Shown here: positions 8,701 through 64,000 of the stretch, in pieces
Position numbering within the stretch: position 1 is the first letter of the stretch
Layout of the letters: every line of letters begins with the position of its first letter
Virus record (IMG/VR): IMGVR_UViG_3300010052_000216
Span: 9,352-73,351 of that record
DNA from: a virus
Lineage: Duplodnaviria > Caudoviricetes
Length of the DNA: 64,000 bases
Strand: one strand, 5' to 3'
The notes under the pieces: generated by a model
The model's input: only the letters and a program-made list of their open reading frames with translations
What the model was told of the DNA's origin: nothing
The model's database searches: none
Position numbers and translations under genes: made by a program

Positions 8701-9687
8701 CAAAAAGTTGTCGTAAGCAAAATCGGTAGTTTTGGCAGCGGACCTAGCAGCTTAGGAAATCCGAGTACGGCGACCAACGCCAATTTGCAAATCGGCACAT
8801 CCACTTCCTCGAGTTCTCCTGCGTTAAGCTATGTTGGAACTGGTGAGGTAACAAGCAGAAATATCGAGGTCGTCGGCGGCACAACGAGTATCACGCTCGA
8901 TCAATCTGGAACTGGTCTGCTGAAATTTACCGGAGACCTCACTTCGGCCGTGACAGCAATCAAGACGATCAATCTGACCGGCTCGACCACTGGTACAGCG
9001 GAGTTTGCTGGCAGCATCTCGAATAGTTCCACAGGAAGTGTTTTCAGCGTTAACAAGAGCGGCACAGGAACTTGGATCCTTTCTGGCAGCAATTCCTATA
9101 CAGGGACCACGACCATCTCGGGTGGAACCTTGATTGTTAACGGGGGGGTAGTGGGAAATGTAACTATGTCGAGCCTGTCGTCGCTTGGAGGTAGCGGCAC
9201 GATTGGAGGGAATGTCACTGGCGTTGGCAACGTCTCGCCCGGGAACTCGATCGGAACATTGTTCATTGATGGAAACCTTTTTATCACGGGGTTGCATCAA
9301 TTCGAGATTTCTAAATTGACAACAACCACATTTGCTAATGATCGTATCTTCGGCATCAACACTTTGACGTACGATGGAATCTTGCAAGTGACACTAGCAT
9401 CGGATTCACTCTCGCTCGTCGGCGGTGAAAGCTGGGACTTGTATGATTTCACCACGCGAGCTGGAGTAAGCGTATTCGACAATAACGTGGACTTCGGCAA
9501 ATTAGGCGGTGGAGGAAGCTTGCCTGCAATCGCGCCAAATTTGTCTTGGGCATTTAATTATTCAGAAGGAACATTGAGTGTCGTGGCGATTCCTGAACCA
9601 ACAGCTATTGGTGGCATTATTGGTGTCCTAATCTGCACAGTTGCCATTCGACGGACAATACGAAGAACGGTAGCCAATTTAGATTGA
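5770..9687 (+). CDS. PEP-CTERM surface protein with autotransporter-associated beta-strand (PATR) repeats
   Basis: Signal peptide; about five K.G.GT..L...N.YTG.T.I..G.L repeats; C-terminal IPEPT + TM + RRTIRR; no beta-barrel. Confidence 0.85.
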   Translation: MKILQRFFLLCCFVLAVSGIGNAQQFLYWKGLNLPWSNPAGWSTNETSGGSSSIAPGADRKAVFNQTSANANAQTIVIDSPTSALGIIVFNSGPTTFVGNNPAGQTLDVGSTGFTMNAGAGPVIIGDTSNPVLLNGGGQFNNYSSNSLVIRNNIDLIALNLSGPGGSATSTFVFEGIISGGLGNGSGNVNISNGAIVEFKNTANSFTGITSVSGENSVLIYSGGTATTTAQYGNGSGNIPKIIQLNGNATFRVVEQDLNINTGSAANPSAGLIFKFQGSGGVLDVAEGRTLTIDEGTGSSETYTGYPLQGTLNTTITKRGLGTLALGGSTGGNSNLDSSIVIAEGTLRISGTGLMLGASTAGTTIKPGADFDLNGTTTTFEPLTIGGSGRNGNSNALYNSSTTAATWNSSITLNADTSLGTTVGAMNIGGTITGAYNLTTRNDSAQLLKITSPINITGLLSNAGSGTGTTEIWGALKSTVTKVVQDSATSTLRLISAQTTYTNGVQLKQGLLVLDDATALGASGSSLTIDGGRLDIGSSSITMTGTYTQTWNADLYFVGSQSLTMNAGAISLGNSPTAIRIVTVLNNTLTLGGDISNGTHLTTPTTGLLKNGAGSLVLSGGNTFTGTTQIDQGTLVYRTQSSLYNSDSSKWTPANVNAASGTTIGFGITSFGEANIDALRTSGIFKSGVALGIDTSLGNGTHSLQIADTSAGSLPFVKLGTGTLTLGPNNTYTGQTQIRAGVLAVSSLNRISGGTTASGLGAPTTVATGTVRMEGTGTMRYLGTGETSDRNFSLNAAGAIDQSGTGNLQLTGSIISETMSSTGLTLLGSTAGTGELTQRIDNSNFSLTKTGSGTWTLSDNSNNLSRITVNAGVLRFSGTGNTVQNITMNGGTLDLGNSPLLLKATSFSIVQGSGNATIKGDLVLGTDAGDIGSSTSNPITIDGVISGPFGIDYWNAQYGTTVLGAANTYSGLSKIQNQKVVVSKIGSFGSGPSSLGNPSTATNANLQIGTSTSSSSPALSYVGTGEVTSRNIEVVGGTTSITLDQSGTGLLKFTGDLTSAVTAIKTINLTGSTTGTAEFAGSISNSSTGSVFSVNKSGTGTWILSGSNSYTGTTTISGGTLIVNGGVVGNVTMSSLSSLGGSGTIGGNVTGVGNVSPGNSIGTLFIDGNLFITGLHQFEISKLTTTTFANDRIFGINTLTYDGILQVTLASDSLSLVGGESWDLYDFTTRAGVSVFDNNVDFGKLGGGGSLPAIAPNLSWAFNYSEGTLSVVAIPEPTAIGGIIGVLICTVAIRRTIRRTVANLD

Positions 9688-56766: not shown

Positions 56767-57261
56767 CTATTTGTGGCACAGACTGACACCGCCCGCCCGA
56801 AACTTTAATACCGCATCAACCTCACTAATATCAGTAAATCTACAGTCATCTATTTTTAAGTTCCTTATTGTCTTTGATTTGCAGAGCATCTCAACATCTT
56901 CATGTGTCAAATTGCATGAAATCAAATTTAATCCAAGAATTAAATCACAAGAAGACACATATTCTAAAACAAGCATATTTTTACTATGGCTGCCATAGTT
57001 GATAACAGTTGCATGATCTACACACAAATCATTATAAAAATATTTATATGCCCTATTATAGATTGTCGTTGAGTTTATATTGTCTTTATAAAAATACACT
57101 ATACACCCATTGCTTCCTTCATCTGTCAGCGATGACATTCTCTGAATCAGCATGCATGTCATGTTTTCATGGTATGTAATATCAAACGATCTTTTCAGGC
57201 AATAAACAACTGCAGCAACAAGCAATGTCGCTCCAAAAAAACTCTTAAGAGGAATCTTCAT
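56767..57261 (-). CDS. Membrane-anchored LRR-like protein, probably 3'-truncated
   Basis: KIPLKSFFGATLLVAAVV shares LKSFFG with the 53642-54400 protein; LNLISCNLT/LKIDDCRFT repeats; ATGA overlap with the upstream gene. Confidence 0.6.
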   Translation of the reverse strand: MKIPLKSFFGATLLVAAVVYCLKRSFDITYHENMTCMLIQRMSSLTDEGSNGCIVYFYKDNINSTTIYNRAYKYFYNDLCVDHATVINYGSHSKNMLVLEYVSSCDLILGLNLISCNLTHEDVEMLCKSKTIRNLKIDDCRFTDISEVDAVLKFRAGGVSLCHK

Positions 57262-57753
57262 AGCTTCCTCTTGAAATTGATTTTTTTGCCAGTTTCACCA
57301 GGCAGTTTACCGGCCGCTTCAAGCAGCCTAGTTTCTCTTGTGTCATTATGTTCTTTTCCATACCAAGACGGAAAATTGTATTTATGTAAAATCTGCTTGT
57401 GTACAAAAAGTCGGTTCTGCCCCACTTCTACTGGTTCTCCTTCAATTTGCGTGAAAACCGCAACATCTGTATGTTTATCCTCGACTTTGATATCAATAAA
57501 TTCATATTCTTGGGAGTTATCATTTGATTTACAATACTCGATTTCAGCCTTCACCCTACGAATAATTAAATCAGCACCCTTGCTGAGTTTTCCATCACCT
57601 GCAACATCCTTCTCGAAAGCTAGTGTCACTGATTCGCCAGCTTCAACCTGTTTGGTTTTATTATTATTGTCTGCAAAGTCAAAATTCACTAGTTTTAAAT
57701 CAATGGTCACCTTCATTGGTTCTGCCGGCTTTCTTCCGTTTGTACACATTGCG
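57258..57753 (-). pseudogene. 5'-truncated gene (orphan toxin-tip candidate) cut by transposon end
   Basis: AT-rich open frame that runs up to the TGTACCCC junction; the track ORF's first codons lie inside the inverted repeat. Confidence 0.5.
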
Positions 57754-57834
57754 TGTACCCCATCGTTAATTCTGGCCGCTAGCATTCGATTTATTGGTGG
57801 AGGAATGGGCTTCCTGGGTTTGCTGATTGACCGC
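57754..57834 (+). repeat. Left terminal inverted repeat
   Basis: Core TGGCCGCTAGCA at 57773-57784. Confidence 0.8.
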
Positions 57835-59121
57835 CAGCGCGAAGTGCGTTGGCTGGTCGAGTGACGTGCTGTTGAGCGCTGCCACTGGTGTCTCAGCTAG
57901 CGTAATTATACCCGCGCCGGGTTGGGTTGCCATCACTTGGGAACTCGCCGCGCGATTTTTTCTCGCGCCGGATTTGCGTCTGGGATGAATGCGCAAGAGA
58001 TCGTGCGCCACCAGCACGTCGCGCACGGCACGGCGATCCACGGCCGCTTGCTGGTCATGCGTCAGCAGTGTGTCGAGCGCGAAGTCGAACTGCGCGCGCA
58101 CCAATCTTCGTTGTTGCTCCACTGCCTCGATGAAGGCGGCTCGCTCGACCGGTACCAGAGACGCACGGGTTTGCCACAACTCGTCAGCCGTCGGCCCCTG
58201 CCAACCGTGCGGTCGCGTCAACTGATTGGCCCAGGCAAGCGCCGTGGCCGCATCTTCACAGGTCGGCCCTGCCGGACGTTGACGATAGCGCGCGGCGGCT
58301 TCCTGGTAACTGGTTAATTGGCCATTGGCCCGCTCGACTCCGCCGTTGTATTGGGGATGGCGTTTGGGCGAGAAGAGCGGCACTACTTGGTACTGGGCCA
58401 ACAAGTCCTTGGTCTCGTCAGCCCGGAACTGCCCGCCGTTATCGCTCTTCATTACCAGTGGTGGTCCGTACTTTAGGAACAGCGCTTCGTATTGAAGTTG
58501 AACTGCTTCGGCGGTGGCCGACTCCAGCGGTTGCCAGAGGATTTGCGCCCGACTGGCGAGATCTTTGATCGACAGGATCCAGAAGTAACGTCCTTCGAGC
58601 GGCTCCCGTCGTTCTTTGAAGTCCGCTGCCCAGACGGTCCCGGGGCGCAGCCATTCCAGCCAGCTACACCGGCTCTCAGCTTGCCGGCGCTGGAGCTGTT
58701 TAAAACGGCGACAGACATCGCTGAGGTCGAAGCGCGCCAACTGCGGGAAGGCCGACCGCACCGCCACCAACGGAGTCGCGGAGCCGTGACGTTCGAGGAA
58801 CCGCGCGACTTCGTTGCGATCCGCCCGGGTGGCGCAGCGCGGTGGTCGCCCGCGTAGCGCTGGTTCGCTCGCCGCTGCTTGTTGTCGCCAACGCCGCGCG
58901 GTCCGTTCGGCGAGCGGCAACTCTCGCGTGACGCAGGCCATCGCCAAGCCTCGGGCCCGCACTGCCTGGCACACCTCGGCGGTGCGAACTCGGACGTCTT
59001 GCTCGGCGCGGCGGCGCGGTTGCTGAGCGCCGCATTGGTTCCGGCGGGCCAAGGAGTGTTCTTGGCAGCGCGGAGTTATTTCGTGCGCGGGGGGCGTGTC
59101 GCCGTTTAGCCGGGACTTTTT
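57766..59121 (-). CDS. DDE transposase OrfB-like; frame opens at the A7 run
   Basis: WAADFKE, KSDNGGQF, NGGVERAN. The frame is open from 59121, upstream of the TTG at 59052. Confidence 0.8.
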   Translation of the reverse strand, partial: KKSRLNGDTPPAHEITPRCQEHSLARRNQCGAQQPRRRAEQDVRVRTAEVCQAVRARGLAMACVTRELPLAERTARRWRQQAAASEPALRGRPPRCATRADRNEVARFLERHGSATPLVAVRSAFPQLARFDLSDVCRRFKQLQRRQAESRCSWLEWLRPGTVWAADFKERREPLEGRYFWILSIKDLASRAQILWQPLESATAEAVQLQYEALFLKYGPPLVMKSDNGGQFRADETKDLLAQYQVVPLFSPKRHPQYNGGVERANGQLTSYQEAAARYRQRPAGPTCEDAATALAWANQLTRPHGWQGPTADELWQTRASLVPVERAAFIEAVEQQRRLVRAQFDFALDTLLTHDQQAAVDRRAVRDVLVAHDLLRIHPRRKSGARKNRAASSQVMATQPGAGIITLAETPVAALNSTSLDQPTHFALAVNQQTQEAHSSTNKSNASGQN

Positions 59122-59501
59122 TTAAACGCGCCCGTCCGCGCGACTACGTGCGGGAGTGTCCGCGCCAAGTCTCCCTGCACCGCGACCACCGCCGCTTGCT
59201 TTTCCAAGGCCTGCACGCGCTGTTGCAACTCCTGCACCTCGGCGAGCGATAAGCTTGGCTCCGTCTTGCCCGGGCGACCGGGCGAACGAGGCTCCAGGAA
59301 CTCCAGCGATTTTTGCAGCCAGGCCTGCCGCTGCGCAAAGAACCGCGATTCGCCAATCCCCAACTGGCGACACGCCTCCAACACCGTGCATTCCCCAGAC
59401 AAGGTTCGCAAGAACAACGTCATCCGCTGCTGAGCATGCGCCGATCCCTCCAATCGCTGGATCAACTCCACTCCTTGCGGCTTCCGTCCCGCCCGATTCA
59501 T
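59106..59501 (-). CDS. OrfA-like HTH + coiled-coil protein
   Basis: AGGAGG SD; TVLEACRQLGIGESRF HTH; ends in TTTAAAAAAAG. Confidence 0.8.
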   Translation of the reverse strand: MNRAGRKPQGVELIQRLEGSAHAQQRMTLFLRTLSGECTVLEACRQLGIGESRFFAQRQAWLQKSLEFLEPRSPGRPGKTEPSLSLAEVQELQQRVQALEKQAAVVAVQGDLARTLPHVVARTGAFKKSPG

Positions 59502-59527
59502 GACTAACACCTCCTGAACGAGAGAAC

Positions 59528-59564
59528 CGCGACGGACTGCTGCGCCTCGCAGCAGCCCGTCGCG
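59528..59564. other. GC-rich intergenic hairpin
   Basis: CGCGACGG-A-CTGCTGCG-CCT-CGCAGCAG-C-CCGTCGCG. Confidence 0.6.
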
Positions 59565-59585
59565 CGGTCATTACACGCACCGTAC

Positions 59586-60128
59586 TTAAACATCATTCCC
59601 CGCGGTTGTCGAACTACTCGGTTCTGCTTCCGCAGTACCACTACTCAACGTCGCGAGCAACTGCACGGCCTTCAACGCCCGCACACTCGGACGGCGCGCA
59701 CGCCGTTTTCGTGAACCAGCTGTGGGCTGCTTGTCCGCAGCGGAACTTGTCCCCTTGGCCAGACTCTTAGCCGCCGGCAACACCAACCCCAACGAACGTT
59801 CCGTCGCTCGCACCAACGCCTGTTGCCGATCACACTCGCGCCGCAACCGCCGATTTTCACGTTCCAGGATCGTCAGCCGTTTCGAAGCGTCGGCCCGCGG
59901 ACCGCGCGGAGCCGGCTCGCACGCCGAGAGCAGACCCAACAGAGCCCGCCGCTCCAGTTGATAGTAGCGCGGCAACGAGGTCTGTAAGACTTGCGCCGCT
60001 TCCGCCGGTCGCCGGACGCCGGCCAAGACTTCCAGAATGGCTGCCGCTTGCCGCTGCGCTGCCGACGCCAAGACAGGCGGAGCGGAACTTTGTTGCGGAC
60101 GCACCTTTTTGGGCTTTGCTTCTTTCAC
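59586..60128 (-). CDS. Second HTH + coiled-coil protein, paralogous to OrfA-like
   Basis: PAEAAQVLQTSLPRYY HTH; LERENRRLRRE coil; GTGA overlap with the upstream transposase. Confidence 0.8.
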   Translation of the reverse strand: MKEAKPKKVRPQQSSAPPVLASAAQRQAAAILEVLAGVRRPAEAAQVLQTSLPRYYQLERRALLGLLSACEPAPRGPRADASKRLTILERENRRLRRECDRQQALVRATERSLGLVLPAAKSLAKGTSSAADKQPTAGSRKRRARRPSVRALKAVQLLATLSSGTAEAEPSSSTTAGNDV

Positions 60129-61783
60129 AAGACACCTCCCGTCGAATCGCGAGGTAGATCGGCCGCCGACGGCAACACTGTCGATTCGTTGCTGCTTGAA
60201 CTGGCTGCCACACCATCATACCAAGATTGGCCCGGAGCCAGCGACGCGAGTTCTTCTCCCGCGCTGGCCGGAGCCGCGTGTGGACAAAGAGGAACCGCCG
60301 CGTCCCCGGACGGTTCGGCTGGCACCGCGGGCGGACCGACCAACTCCACCTCTTGCCGCGGTTGACCCGGGCGCGTCAGGATCACCCGCTCGCCTTCGGC
60401 ATGCACGCTAAAGGGTTGCCCCGCAACTTGTCCCGTCACATAAAACGGCGAGCGTGGTTGACCCTGTCGTGCTAGCTCCAACGCATTCGCCGCCACCCGT
60501 TCCTTAAGAGTCTTGAGCACCGCCGGTGCTGCCCGAAAGAAGCGATCCGCTGGCGTGAGTCCCTCGCAACCTTGATGCGGACGCTGGAAGTTGTAGTGGT
60601 CGATGAACCAACCAATCCGCCGCCGCGCATCTTCCAAGTCCAAAAACACCGCCCGTTGCAAGCACTCGCGCCACAGCGTTCCCCAAAAACGCTCGATCTT
60701 GCCGAGCGTTTGCGGATGCTTCGGCCGTGACACCACTTGCCGAATCCCCTGTTGCTCCAACTCCTTACTAAACTGGCTTTTACCACGCCAGGTGATGTAC
60801 TGCGGACCATTGTCCGTCAGGATCTCTTGCGGCGGACCATACGAAGCAATCGCCGCGCGAAGCACCTCCAGCACCAGCGCACTCGAGGCGCTGGCATGCA
60901 ATCCGTATCCAACCAAGAACCGACTGTGGTCATCCATGAAGCCGACCAAGTGCAGTCGCCGATTCTGCCGCTTCAGCACAAAGGTGAATAAATCGGTTTG
61001 CCACAACTGGTTGGGAGACGCCCGTTCAAACCGTCGCTCTTTATCCGGATGAGGCCGGGTGGCCCGCTCTTCCATTTGGTAACCCGCCTCATGCAGCACG
61101 CGCGAGACGGCGCTCGCACTCGCCGCCAATGCCGGGCCGCGCATCAATTCATCGCTGATCCGTTGGCAACCCCACTCGGGATGCGCTTGTTTCAACATCA
61201 CGATCGTCCGCTTGGTCACCTCCGGCAGCTTGCTGCCGTTGCTCGGGCCACGCGGATGTTCCGACAACCCCGCTGGTCCATGCTGCGTAAACCGCTTCTT
61301 CCACAGATAAAGCGTGTGCTTCGACAAGCCCACCAGCGGCGCAAAATCCCCCGCCGGCAGACCGCTCCGCTGCCACGTGTCGAGAATCAACAGCCGCTCG
61401 TGCGGCGAGAACGGCAGCCGGACTTCCTCCGGCTTCACCAACTTGCGGCCTTTTTGGCCGTCCCAGCCCACGCGCGGCTGCGGAAGTTTTACACCACCTT
61501 GCCGCCCTGGCGAGGTCGGCTGCTGCGGGCCATACATCACACCCTTGGCCGGGGCCACCGAAAAGTCTTCTTCGGCAAACTCCTCGGACTCCTCGTCAGC
61601 GCTCTCCTCGCCTGCGCTGACTGACTCCGCTAGCACTTCGGGGTCTTCCTCGTCCGTGAACTCGTCCGATTCTGCGGGCCACGACTCCGCGGGCAACATG
61701 CGGCCCGGAGCATCTTCGAACTCGCGCCACTCACTCTCGTCACGATCCTCATCCTCATACTCGTGTGACATCTCAAGCTCCAT
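60125..61783 (-). CDS. IS481-like DDE transposase with acidic N-terminal extension
   Basis: HTH VGLSKHTLYLW; WQTDLF, LTDNGPQY, GKIERFW, YNFQRPHQG. Confidence 0.9.
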   Translation of the reverse strand: MELEMSHEYEDEDRDESEWREFEDAPGRMLPAESWPAESDEFTDEEDPEVLAESVSAGEESADEESEEFAEEDFSVAPAKGVMYGPQQPTSPGRQGGVKLPQPRVGWDGQKGRKLVKPEEVRLPFSPHERLLILDTWQRSGLPAGDFAPLVGLSKHTLYLWKKRFTQHGPAGLSEHPRGPSNGSKLPEVTKRTIVMLKQAHPEWGCQRISDELMRGPALAASASAVSRVLHEAGYQMEERATRPHPDKERRFERASPNQLWQTDLFTFVLKRQNRRLHLVGFMDDHSRFLVGYGLHASASSALVLEVLRAAIASYGPPQEILTDNGPQYITWRGKSQFSKELEQQGIRQVVSRPKHPQTLGKIERFWGTLWRECLQRAVFLDLEDARRRIGWFIDHYNFQRPHQGCEGLTPADRFFRAAPAVLKTLKERVAANALELARQGQPRSPFYVTGQVAGQPFSVHAEGERVILTRPGQPRQEVELVGPPAVPAEPSGDAAVPLCPHAAPASAGEELASLAPGQSWYDGVAASSSSNESTVLPSAADLPRDSTGGVL

Positions 61784-61788
61784 TGCTT

Positions 61789-61869
61789 GCGGCTAAACCG
61801 CAAAAAACGGAAGCGATTCCTCCACCTATTTAAGCCCTGCTAGCGGCCAAGATTTTGGGAAAGGGGACA
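61789..61869 (-). repeat. Right terminal inverted repeat
   Basis: Core TGCTAGCGGCCA at 61838-61849; ends GGGGACA at 61869. Confidence 0.8.
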
Positions 61870-61973
61870 GTGATCATGGGTTTGGCAAGTCGCCAAACAA
61901 AACGAGCCGACAAGGTGGTGGAACACCTGGCCGGCTCTAACCACAACCAGTCCTTCTAGTGAAAGGGCCAATC

Positions 61974-62501
61974 ATGGCTACGGTCGATTCTAGCACTCCG
62001 CGCCCAGCGCTCAATGTCGAGAAAGAACTCGCGGCGCTCGAGCGGATGACGGTGAACCAGCTCCGGGGCAAATACCTGGAGATCTTTGGCGAACCGACAA
62101 ATTCACGCCACAAGCAATGGCTAATCAAGCGTACTATCTGGCGAATGCAGGCGAACGCCGAGGGTGATCTCTCGGAACGTGCACGGCGGCGGGCCCTGGA
62201 ACTCGCCAACGACGCCGATCTGCGGATGATGGCTCCCCGGGTGAAAAAGCCGAATCCCGAGGCCGTCGAACGAACTGTCACCGTCGCGACCACGATTCAG
62301 CCTTCGACCGATTTGATGCCCGGGATGATGTTGCGTCGGGAGTACAAAGGGCGCGCGGTCACCGTGCTGGTCTTGGCGGACGGCTTTGAATTCGAAGGCG
62401 AACACTACAAATCTTTGACGGCCATCACGCAAATCGTGACCGGCAAGCACTGGAACGGGTTTCATTTCTTCGGCTTGCGAAAGAAAGCGGGTGTCCAATG
62501 A
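61974..62501 (+). CDS. DUF2924-family protein, second copy
   Basis: Differs from 32580-33107 at only about 8 of 175 residues. Confidence 0.9.
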   Translation: MATVDSSTPRPALNVEKELAALERMTVNQLRGKYLEIFGEPTNSRHKQWLIKRTIWRMQANAEGDLSERARRRALELANDADLRMMAPRVKKPNPEAVERTVTVATTIQPSTDLMPGMMLRREYKGRAVTVLVLADGFEFEGEHYKSLTAITQIVTGKHWNGFHFFGLRKKAGVQ

Positions 62502-64000
62502 AATCCCTAAAAAAACCACATGAGAAGCCAAAAGTATTTCGCTGCGCGATCTATACCCGCAAAAGCACCGAAGAAGGCCTTGAGCAGGAATTCAACACCC
62601 TCGATGCCCAGCGCTACGCCGGCGAAAACTTTATTCGCAGCCAAGAGGAAGAAGGCTGGGTTTGCCTACCGGAACTGTACGACGACGGCGGGTTCACCGG
62701 CGCAAACATGGATCGCCCGGCGCTGCGACGTCTGTTGGCCGACATCCAAGCGGGCAAGGTCGACTGCGTCGTTGTCTACAAAGTCGACCGCTTGAGTCGT
62801 AGTCTGCTAGACTTCGCCCGGATCATGGAGACCTTCGATCGACACAAAGTCTCGTTCGTCAGCGTCACTCAGGCGTTTAACACGGCATCGTCGATGGGGC
62901 GTTTGATCTTGAACGTCCTGTTATCCTTCGCCCAGTTCGAACGCGAAATGATCAGCGAACGGACTCGGGACAAAATCGCCGCCACGCGCCGCAAAGGCAA
63001 ATGGTCAGGCGGCATGCCGGTGCTGGGCTACGACGTTGTGCAGACCAAACTTGTGGTCAACGAGGCCGAGGCGGCCATGGTGCGCCAGATTTTTGAACTG
63101 TACCTGGAACAACAGTCAGCCTTGGCTGTTGTCAAAGAACTAGAACTCCGAGGCTGGCGCACGAAGTGTTGGACCACGCGAAAAGAAACGGTACGAGGCG
63201 GACGGCCGTTCAATCGGAACTCGCTCTACGAGTTACTCACCAACAACGTGTACATCGGCAAAGTGCGTTACAAGAACGAAGTGCATACGGGCGAACATCA
63301 GGCCATTGTTGACTTGGAGGTTTTCAACCAAGTGCAAATGCTGTTGCAGCGAAACGGCCGTAATGGCGGCAAGACGGTGCGCAACAAGCATGACGCGCTC
63401 TTGAGGAATCTGCTGCATTGCACCGCTTGCAACTGCGGCATGAGCCACTCGTACACTACCAAGGGAACTCGGCTATATCGCTATTATATTTGCAACTCGG
63501 CCCAGAAACGTGGCTGGGAGAGTTGTCCGTCGCCGTCGATACCCGCGGGCGATATCGACCGTTTTGTGGTGGATCAAATTAAGGAAATTGGTCGCGATCC
63601 GAATTTGCTAGATGCAGTGCTGAAGAAGGCTCTCGAGAGTTCCGAAAAGCAAGTCTCGCATATAAAAACCGAACTAAGTTCGTTACGCAGCAAGGCACTG
63701 GTGTGCCATGAGGGCGAAGCTAGAACCGGGGTTGGGCACACGGAGCAGAGGATTGCCGCGCTGGAGGATGAGCTGCGGGCTCTAGATTCGCAAGTCATCG
63801 GCGACGATGAAGTCGAAAGCGCACTAAAGGAATTTGCTGAGACGTGGAATTGCCTATCATCGCGTGAGCAAGGTCGAATCATCTCGCTACTGGTCGAACG
63901 CGTCGCCTATGACGGGCTGGCGGGGAAAGTTTCTATCGCTTTGAGATACACGGGAATCTCGGGTCTGGCTGTTAACAGTTGCGAAAAGGCGTCCTCATGA
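62498..64000 (+). CDS. Large serine recombinase, second copy
   Basis: Colinear and highly similar to 33104-34606; AIYTRKS intact. Confidence 0.95.
   Translation: MKSLKKPHEKPKVFRCAIYTRKSTEEGLEQEFNTLDAQRYAGENFIRSQEEEGWVCLPELYDDGGFTGANMDRPALRRLLADIQAGKVDCVVVYKVDRLSRSLLDFARIMETFDRHKVSFVSVTQAFNTASSMGRLILNVLLSFAQFEREMISERTRDKIAATRRKGKWSGGMPVLGYDVVQTKLVVNEAEAAMVRQIFELYLEQQSALAVVKELELRGWRTKCWTTRKETVRGGRPFNRNSLYELLTNNVYIGKVRYKNEVHTGEHQAIVDLEVFNQVQMLLQRNGRNGGKTVRNKHDALLRNLLHCTACNCGMSHSYTTKGTRLYRYYICNSAQKRGWESCPSPSIPAGDIDRFVVDQIKEIGRDPNLLDAVLKKALESSEKQVSHIKTELSSLRSKALVCHEGEARTGVGHTEQRIAALEDELRALDSQVIGDDEVESALKEFAETWNCLSSREQGRIISLLVERVAYDGLAGKVSIALRYTGISGLAVNSCEKASS

Follow-up and report, generated by a model that had tools for sequence, protein, structure and literature searches.

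An insertion sequence family of planctomycetes with two distinct DDE transposases between one pair of inverted ends

On the usual view, bacterial insertion sequences of the DDE (aspartate–aspartate–glutamate) type require one transposase, and the target duplication that they leave is short and of fixed length. Members of the IS481 family (e.g. IS481, IS1002 and ISKpn28) are approximately 1–1.3 kb long, have one gene and make target duplications of 4–15 base pairs (bp); members of the IS3 family (e.g. IS911 and IS1447) consist of an orfA/orfB pair only, are 1.2–1.6 kb long and make duplications of 3–5 bp. IS3 and IS481 relatives use a copy-out-paste-in pathway, in which the element is copied out as a circle. 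In Tn7-type transposons (TnsA, TnsB and TnsC) more than one element-encoded nuclease is used together; the second of these is the restriction-enzyme-like TnsA, which is not a DDE enzyme, and Tn7 also needs the AAA+ ATPase TnsC and target selectors, and makes 5-bp duplications. The transposon Tn554 has two related recombinases and a small third protein, and makes no target duplication; its recombinases are tyrosine recombinases, it is site-specific and it has no inverted ends. Here, we describe an element of 4116 bp, which encodes two different DDE enzymes and two small, putative helix-turn-helix (HTH) proteins between one pair of imperfect inverted ends. It lies in a window of 64,000 nucleotides (nt) of viral DNA (Duplodnaviria; Caudoviricetes), i.e., the whole stretch that was analysed, positions 9,352 to 73,351 of IMG/VR virus record IMGVR_UViG_3300010052_000216; all positions below are those of the window unless another contig is named.

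An earlier note, made from the letters of the window, had described 57754–61869 as a single TG...CA unit with one pair of 81-bp inverted ends, and this description holds. A contig from another sample (L004) has the same 4116-bp unit, 95.6% identical, between different flanks and with both boundaries at the same bases; thus, both boundaries are fixed to the base. The tips are exactly TGT...ACA, and at the 57754 boundary the G+C (guanine plus cytosine) content changes from approximately 35–40% to more than 60%. All four open reading frames (ORF1 to ORF4) are on the minus strand, in the same direction, and fill 57766–61783. The inverted ends, of approximately 80 bp, are imperfect: the two stretches of 81 nt align at 58 of 79 positions with a score of 29, which is approximately nine standard deviations above that of shuffled sequences (−12.3 ± 4.5). 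The IMG/VR provirus record that contains the window (73 kb) has one copy of the element.

A tblastn survey covered 66 metagenome loci and matches from a sample of 400 Planctomycetota genomes. More than 40 loci in planctomycete genomes and metagenomes share these ends and this arrangement of genes. The order ORF1–ORF2–ORF3–ORF4 is found in approximately 25 metagenome loci and in the distant relatives, wherever enough sequence is present, and all full-length relatives have the four conserved genes, in units of 3.4–4.3 kb with inverted ends of approximately 65–80 bp. In close relatives ORF4 is 48–63% and ORF1 71–81% identical; in distant relatives the values are 30–37% and 41–61%, respectively. 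The ORF4 family comprises 694 clusters at 50% identity (expectation value, E ≤ 1e-30). Every ORF1-like gene (E ≤ 1e-30) in five whole genomes sits within a dual element, and each element has one left and one right end only; G001, a 7.8-Mb contig of a Planctomycetia metagenome-assembled genome (MAG), has five copies and exactly as many left ends. Neither half was found alone with ends of its own. The exceptions to the four-gene order are a 5′ truncation (L003), a locus in which neither ORF1 nor a left end can be recognised (L061), and internally deleted forms whose ORF1 is joined directly to ORF4 (L073/L077 and L082/L083, each type in two separate contigs), and none of these has a second end of its own. 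Two candidate solo relatives of ORF4 (L021 and L024) are unclassified rve proteins with 35–39% identity over the core, and ORF4 had no match in a plasmid collection searched by tblastn.

Purifying selection has acted on all four genes, which have diverged together. Neither D-D-E triad shows any variation, even in the distant lineages; for ORF4, this applies to 33 close and four distant sequences. The ratio of nonsynonymous to synonymous substitution rates (dN/dS) is 0.05–0.29 over all four genes in eight pairs, and 0.14–0.29 for ORF4. Maximum-likelihood trees of ORF1 and ORF4 agree in every supported clade, and the identity matrices are correlated (Spearman 0.72–0.86).

The family is multi-copy and recently active. 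The five copies in G001 (4215–4218 bp) are 99.8% identical. More distant versions of the element are present in at least six copies of 3409 bp in G295 (four aligned, 99–100% identity), in two copies of 3359 bp in G168 (100% identity) and in two copies of 4286 bp in G277 (99.95% identity). In genomes assembled into contigs of 0.2–7.8 Mb, the copies are 99.8–100% identical. In read run X1 the depth of the element is 2–4 times that of its left flank, and several metagenome contigs, as well as one contig in run X24, match a single element exactly in length. In one of the G001 copies (at 311–315 kb; L011/L002) ORF1 is split by a frameshift, and the other four copies are intact.

The family is real and active and belongs to the IS3/IS481 (rve, DDE) superfamily, in which it has a new architecture; the element is an autonomous insertion sequence, and its planctomycete family is apparently unnamed. 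The earlier note had recognised no named family, and we found none that fits; searches of the literature, with ISfinder and TnCentral outside their reach, brought up no description of two-transposase insertion sequences or of planctomycete IS481/IS3 elements. Current genome annotation treats the element as separate genes: an “IS481 transposase”, a generically named “integrase” and two hypothetical proteins. The features of the element are listed in Table 1.

Table 1. Coordinates of the genes, ends and signals of the element in the window (aa, amino acids).
Feature	Positions	Strand	Description
ORF1	60125–61783	−	552 aa; IS481-type DDE transposase; D in WQTD, D in TDNG, E in IER
ORF2	59586–60128	−	180 aa; small, putative HTH + coiled-coil protein, OrfA-like; paralogue of ORF3
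ORF3	59106–59510	−	Approximately 131–134 aa; OrfA-like, putative HTH + coil protein
ORF4	57766–59052; frame open to 59121	−	428 aa (from TTG); second DDE enzyme; D144, D204, E240
ORF1-side (“left”, in gene orientation) end	61789–61869		Tip TGTCCCC; shared blocks GGCCGCTAGC, GTGGAGGAAT; end-specific CTTTCCCAAAATCTT
ORF4-side (“right”) end	57754–57834		Tip TGTACCC; same shared blocks; end-specific ATCGTTAATTCT
Conserved stem	61770–61813	−	CCTTCTCC...GGAGAAGG in relatives, inner GCGGC...GCCGC; pairs with the ORF1 ribosome-binding site
A7 run TTTAAAAAAAG	59117–59123	−	Within the 15-nt stretch open in both ORF3 and ORF4; likely slippage site
Internal 32-mer	59748–59779		Inside ORF2; 25/32 match to the ORF1-side tip, in right-end orientation

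The proposal of an IS481-like transposase together with a second DDE enzyme has held up. ORF1 passes the NCBIfam IS481 model (230.9 bits, cut-off 224), comprises HTH_23/HTH_32, rve and rve_3 domains, and has relatives that are annotated by NCBI as IS481 family transposases; its family-wide conserved start is probably the second ATG, at 61771. In ORF4, which has the motifs WAAD, SDNG and VER and whose first start codon is the TTG at 59052, rve is the sole domain found. It scores approximately 66 bits on each of the curated IS3 and IS481 models, far under their cut-offs (66.3 bits for IS3, cut-off 160), and its predicted structure (predicted local distance difference test score 75) matches generic retroviral integrase cores only and is uninformative as to family. 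ORF2 and ORF3 are indeed paralogues (hhalign probability 95%, E 3e-8), with a heptad-like region that is conserved in alignments. ORF2 had no family match in domain searches; ORF3 had weak matches to HTH_28 and HTH_Tnp_1 (E 0.005–0.012), and its family-wide conserved start is probably the ATG at 59501. The language-model neighbours of these OrfA-like proteins are HTH_Tnp_1 clusters, which is a lead only, and a complex prediction for ORF2 with ORF3 (score 0.23, mark 0.32) weighs neither way on binding. Domain searches of the four proteins found no ATPase and no TnsA-like domain. This agrees with the earlier reading that the element has no ATPase and, together with the unit shared by more than 40 loci, that its layout is not that of a simple composite, of IS21 or of Tn7.

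The start of ORF2 overlaps the stop of ORF1 (GTGA), with GGAGGTG 5 nt upstream. Such an overlap (ATGA or GTGA) behind a conserved GGAGGTG (Shine–Dalgarno) sequence is found in 13 of 16 elements, which indicates that the translation of ORF2 is coupled to that of ORF1.

ORF3 and ORF4 form an IS3-style orfA/orfB pair, probably a recoded one, for which slippage on a run of seven to nine A residues (A7–A9) is predicted. ORF4 is in the −1 frame relative to ORF3, and both frames are open over 15 nt that hold TTTAAAAAAAG. Each of the 16 close elements has an A7, A8 or A9 run in this overlap, with variable bases next to it. In the 12 elements with A7 or A8 the frame of ORF4 is −1; of those with A9, ORF4 is in the +1 frame in three and is fused in frame in one. 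Natural in-frame fusions of ORF3 and ORF4 occur in G277 (639 aa) and L050, and a protein of fusion length (P0045) has 569 aa. G295 has an ATGA stop–start overlap in place of the A run, and G168 is also without the run, so that relatives show fused, slipped and coupled versions of this gene pair. In IS1447, a member of the IS3 family, an A9 run gives rise to transcriptional slippage, for which A7 is already long enough (PMC6211511); by analogy, an ORF3–ORF4 fusion, like the OrfAB of IS3, is probably the main form in which the second enzyme is produced.

The two ends are consistently asymmetric. In an alignment of 15 left and 15 right ends, the blocks shared by both ends are the TGTGCCC tip, GGCCGCTAGC at approximately positions 22–31 and GTGGAGnAAnGGnCCTnCTC at approximately positions 44–65; the tips of all copies are given as TGTSCYC at both ends. 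Other blocks are kept within each end yet differ between the ends, namely CTTTCCCAAAATCTT versus nATCGnTAATTCT, and TTAAAT versus TTTAT, and it is because of these that the asymmetry is seen. The left boundary is fixed by the five copies in G001 in addition to L004.

A stem that covers the ribosome-binding site is a classic way in which insertion sequences silence read-through transcripts. The conserved stem at the start of ORF1 has six pairs, two of them with compensatory changes (changes of this kind occur in two sequences), and is also found in L006, L005, L044 and other left ends; it would probably block the translation of read-through transcripts.

The statement that the element has no internal insertion sequence ends stands in part. 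The internal 32-mer resembles the tip far above chance; it is confined to the lineage of the window and L004 and is absent from 14 other elements, and thus it is not a conserved internal end. It could permit a sub-element of 2.1 kb (ORF1 and most of ORF2), and none was seen.

Neither a direct repeat of constant length nor a target consensus was found among 26 insertions for which both flanks are available (one each in the window and L004, five in G001, 11 in metagenome contigs, four in G295, and two each in G168 and G277). The longest match between the suffix of one flank and the prefix of the other is 0 nt in 12 sites, 1 nt in 10, 2 nt in two, 3 nt in one and 4 nt in one, so that for the repeat of 4–15 bp expected of IS481 the sole candidate is one 4-nt match. 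When the flanks of different copies in the same genome were compared crosswise, we saw no pattern in them, and the lack of a consistent duplication is also seen in the 0.2–7.8-Mb contigs of G001, G168 and G277. Empty sites were sought for several copies: for the copy in the window, viral contigs gave no exact match to 25-mers from either flank; for L007, whose flank is a repeat-domain gene, 150 genomes of the order contain no orthologous site; for the flank in G168, an orthologue is missing from 29 genomes of the same family; G295 is the only genome of its genus; and a look-up of the neighbouring gene of L004 gave the same contig only. In four read runs, inspected over 56900–62700, no joint was seen that bypasses the element; at each of the two tips, the reads led into other flanks. 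Joining the flanks gave no clean case of a restored interrupted gene, one side always being non-coding-looking, and no junction of abutted right and left tips (circle or tandem) was found in any fetched locus.

The element can thus be set beside the systems named at the outset. It resembles the IS481 family in that ORF1 is a one-piece HTH + rve DDE protein that passes the curated model, and in its TGT tips; unlike IS481 members, it has four conserved genes in 3.4–4.3 kb, a second DDE enzyme and no regular duplication. With the IS3 family it shares the layout of an orfA and orfB (rve DDE) pair, as ORF3, a putative HTH + coil protein, and ORF4, in the −1 frame and with an A run, as well as TG...CA tips. 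Unlike in IS3 members, an IS481-type enzyme and a further OrfA-like gene lie between the same ends as the pair, the score of ORF4 on the IS3 model is low, and no regular duplication of 3–5 bp was seen. As in Tn7, there is more than one element-encoded nuclease, and the ends are asymmetric with several conserved blocks in each; whereas the second nuclease of Tn7 is TnsA, that of the present element is a DDE enzyme, and neither TnsC nor TnsA has a counterpart among its domains. Tn554 is alike in its two related enzymes, small third protein and missing target duplication, and differs from the present element, whose enzymes are rve DDE proteins, whose ends are long inverted repeats and for which no consensus of target sites was seen.

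The reading that we favour, with a little less than even confidence, is that both DDE enzymes are needed and act together on unlike ends in one mixed transpososome. ORF1 and ORF4 would jointly handle two ends that differ from each other, the blocks common to these ends would be bound with the help of the two OrfA-like paralogues, and the unusual, asymmetric active-site geometry of the mixed complex would result in no target duplication of fixed length. Co-inheritance, purifying selection and the end-specific blocks fit a heteromeric transpososome, as the earlier note had suggested, and make it plausible without proving it; that the enzymes form one complex is a hypothesis, and so is a division of labour in which each takes one end or one strand. 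A more specific form, i.e., an obligate transpososome of the IS481-type enzyme and an IS3-type OrfAB, with asymmetric joining that has no stagger and leaves no target-site duplication, is doubtful. Several points weigh against the mixed complex. Contact between ORF1 and ORF4, and DNA cutting by both, are predictions from sequence. The core of ORF1 is 76–91% identical versus approximately 50–60% for ORF4, which also fits one transposase with an accessory protein. The last codons of ORF4 lie within the right end, and a promoter may lie in the left one; the end-specific blocks may therefore stem from coding constraint on the ORF4 tail or from that promoter, so that asymmetry need not mean different binding proteins. 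The missing target-site duplication rests on filled sites, and short-read contigs could mispair flanks across the repeat; 14 of the 26 sites match by 1–4 nt, weakly above chance and unexplained. Finally, the novelty of the architecture is provisional, as ISfinder and TnCentral lie outside the comparison.

The difference in conservation between ORF1 and ORF4 is also what would be expected if a single enzyme, most likely ORF1, did the DNA chemistry, and ORF3 and ORF4 were a captured IS3-like transposase that had lost its ends, retained as a regulator, as a targeting or assembly factor, or as a back-up. The TGT with which the ends begin, as in IS481 members, and the low scores of ORF4 on both curated models point the same way. 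We regard this as possible, though on the unlikely side, as the triad of ORF4 is invariant, which would be needless in a pure regulator, its dN/dS is low, the slippage site or a fusion is retained, and no element without ORF3 and ORF4 was seen multiplying. The same co-inheritance and intact active sites would be left if both enzymes were essential and acted one after the other, e.g. if one copied out a circle and the other integrated it. Both modules come from copy-out-paste-in families, which favours such an order of events; it has a slim chance in our view, given that no abutted-end junction was found and that no obvious junction promoter was seen on reading the tips by eye. The data here do not separate sequential action from the mixed-complex model. 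That the unit is a chance composite of two adjacent or nested insertion sequences, or an assembly artefact, is refuted for the element itself and has next to no chance: the end-like 32-mer, the unequal G+C content of the two flanks of the window copy and the different flanks that run X1 shows at the two tips could be taken for it, but more than 40 loci, with identity as low as 30%, have the four-gene unit with the same two ends, the trees of the genes agree, 14 other elements lack the 32-mer, and near-identical copies are found in long contigs.

A large family here keeps two distinct rve transposases, catalytically intact by motif, together through deep divergence, and it adds a new architecture to insertion sequence classification. 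If both enzymes are required, the family would offer a natural setting in which to ask how cutting and joining are shared between two DDE active sites, a question that, to our knowledge, could so far be addressed only with the non-DDE TnsA of Tn7. If the joining without stagger is also true, there would be a DDE transposition pathway without target-site duplication.

In the window, the element sits between two divergent genes, both apparently intact (57258–57753 and 61959–64000). The minus-strand gene on the 57258–57753 side is low in G+C, belongs to no known family and has its ATG 5 nt from the element tip; on the plus strand, a DUF2924 gene of full length comes first and a large serine recombinase next. 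Two independent copies, L004 (4443–8327 of that contig) and the one with the right flank of L117 (G295a), abut RHS/YD-repeat toxin-type genes; the L004 element directly precedes an ATG and has the only 4-nt flank match (ATGG). The truncated copy L003 adjoins a SIR2_2 gene. In G120 an IS630-type (DDE_3) transposase gene (L125, 4326–5453) occupies the position of ORF2, and thus another insertion sequence is nested in this element. The elements of a Phycisphaerales MAG (L005) and a Pirellulales MAG (L010) have similar ends and are sisters in both transposase trees despite their hosts belonging to different classes of Planctomycetota, which suggests horizontal transfer of the element between planctomycete classes.

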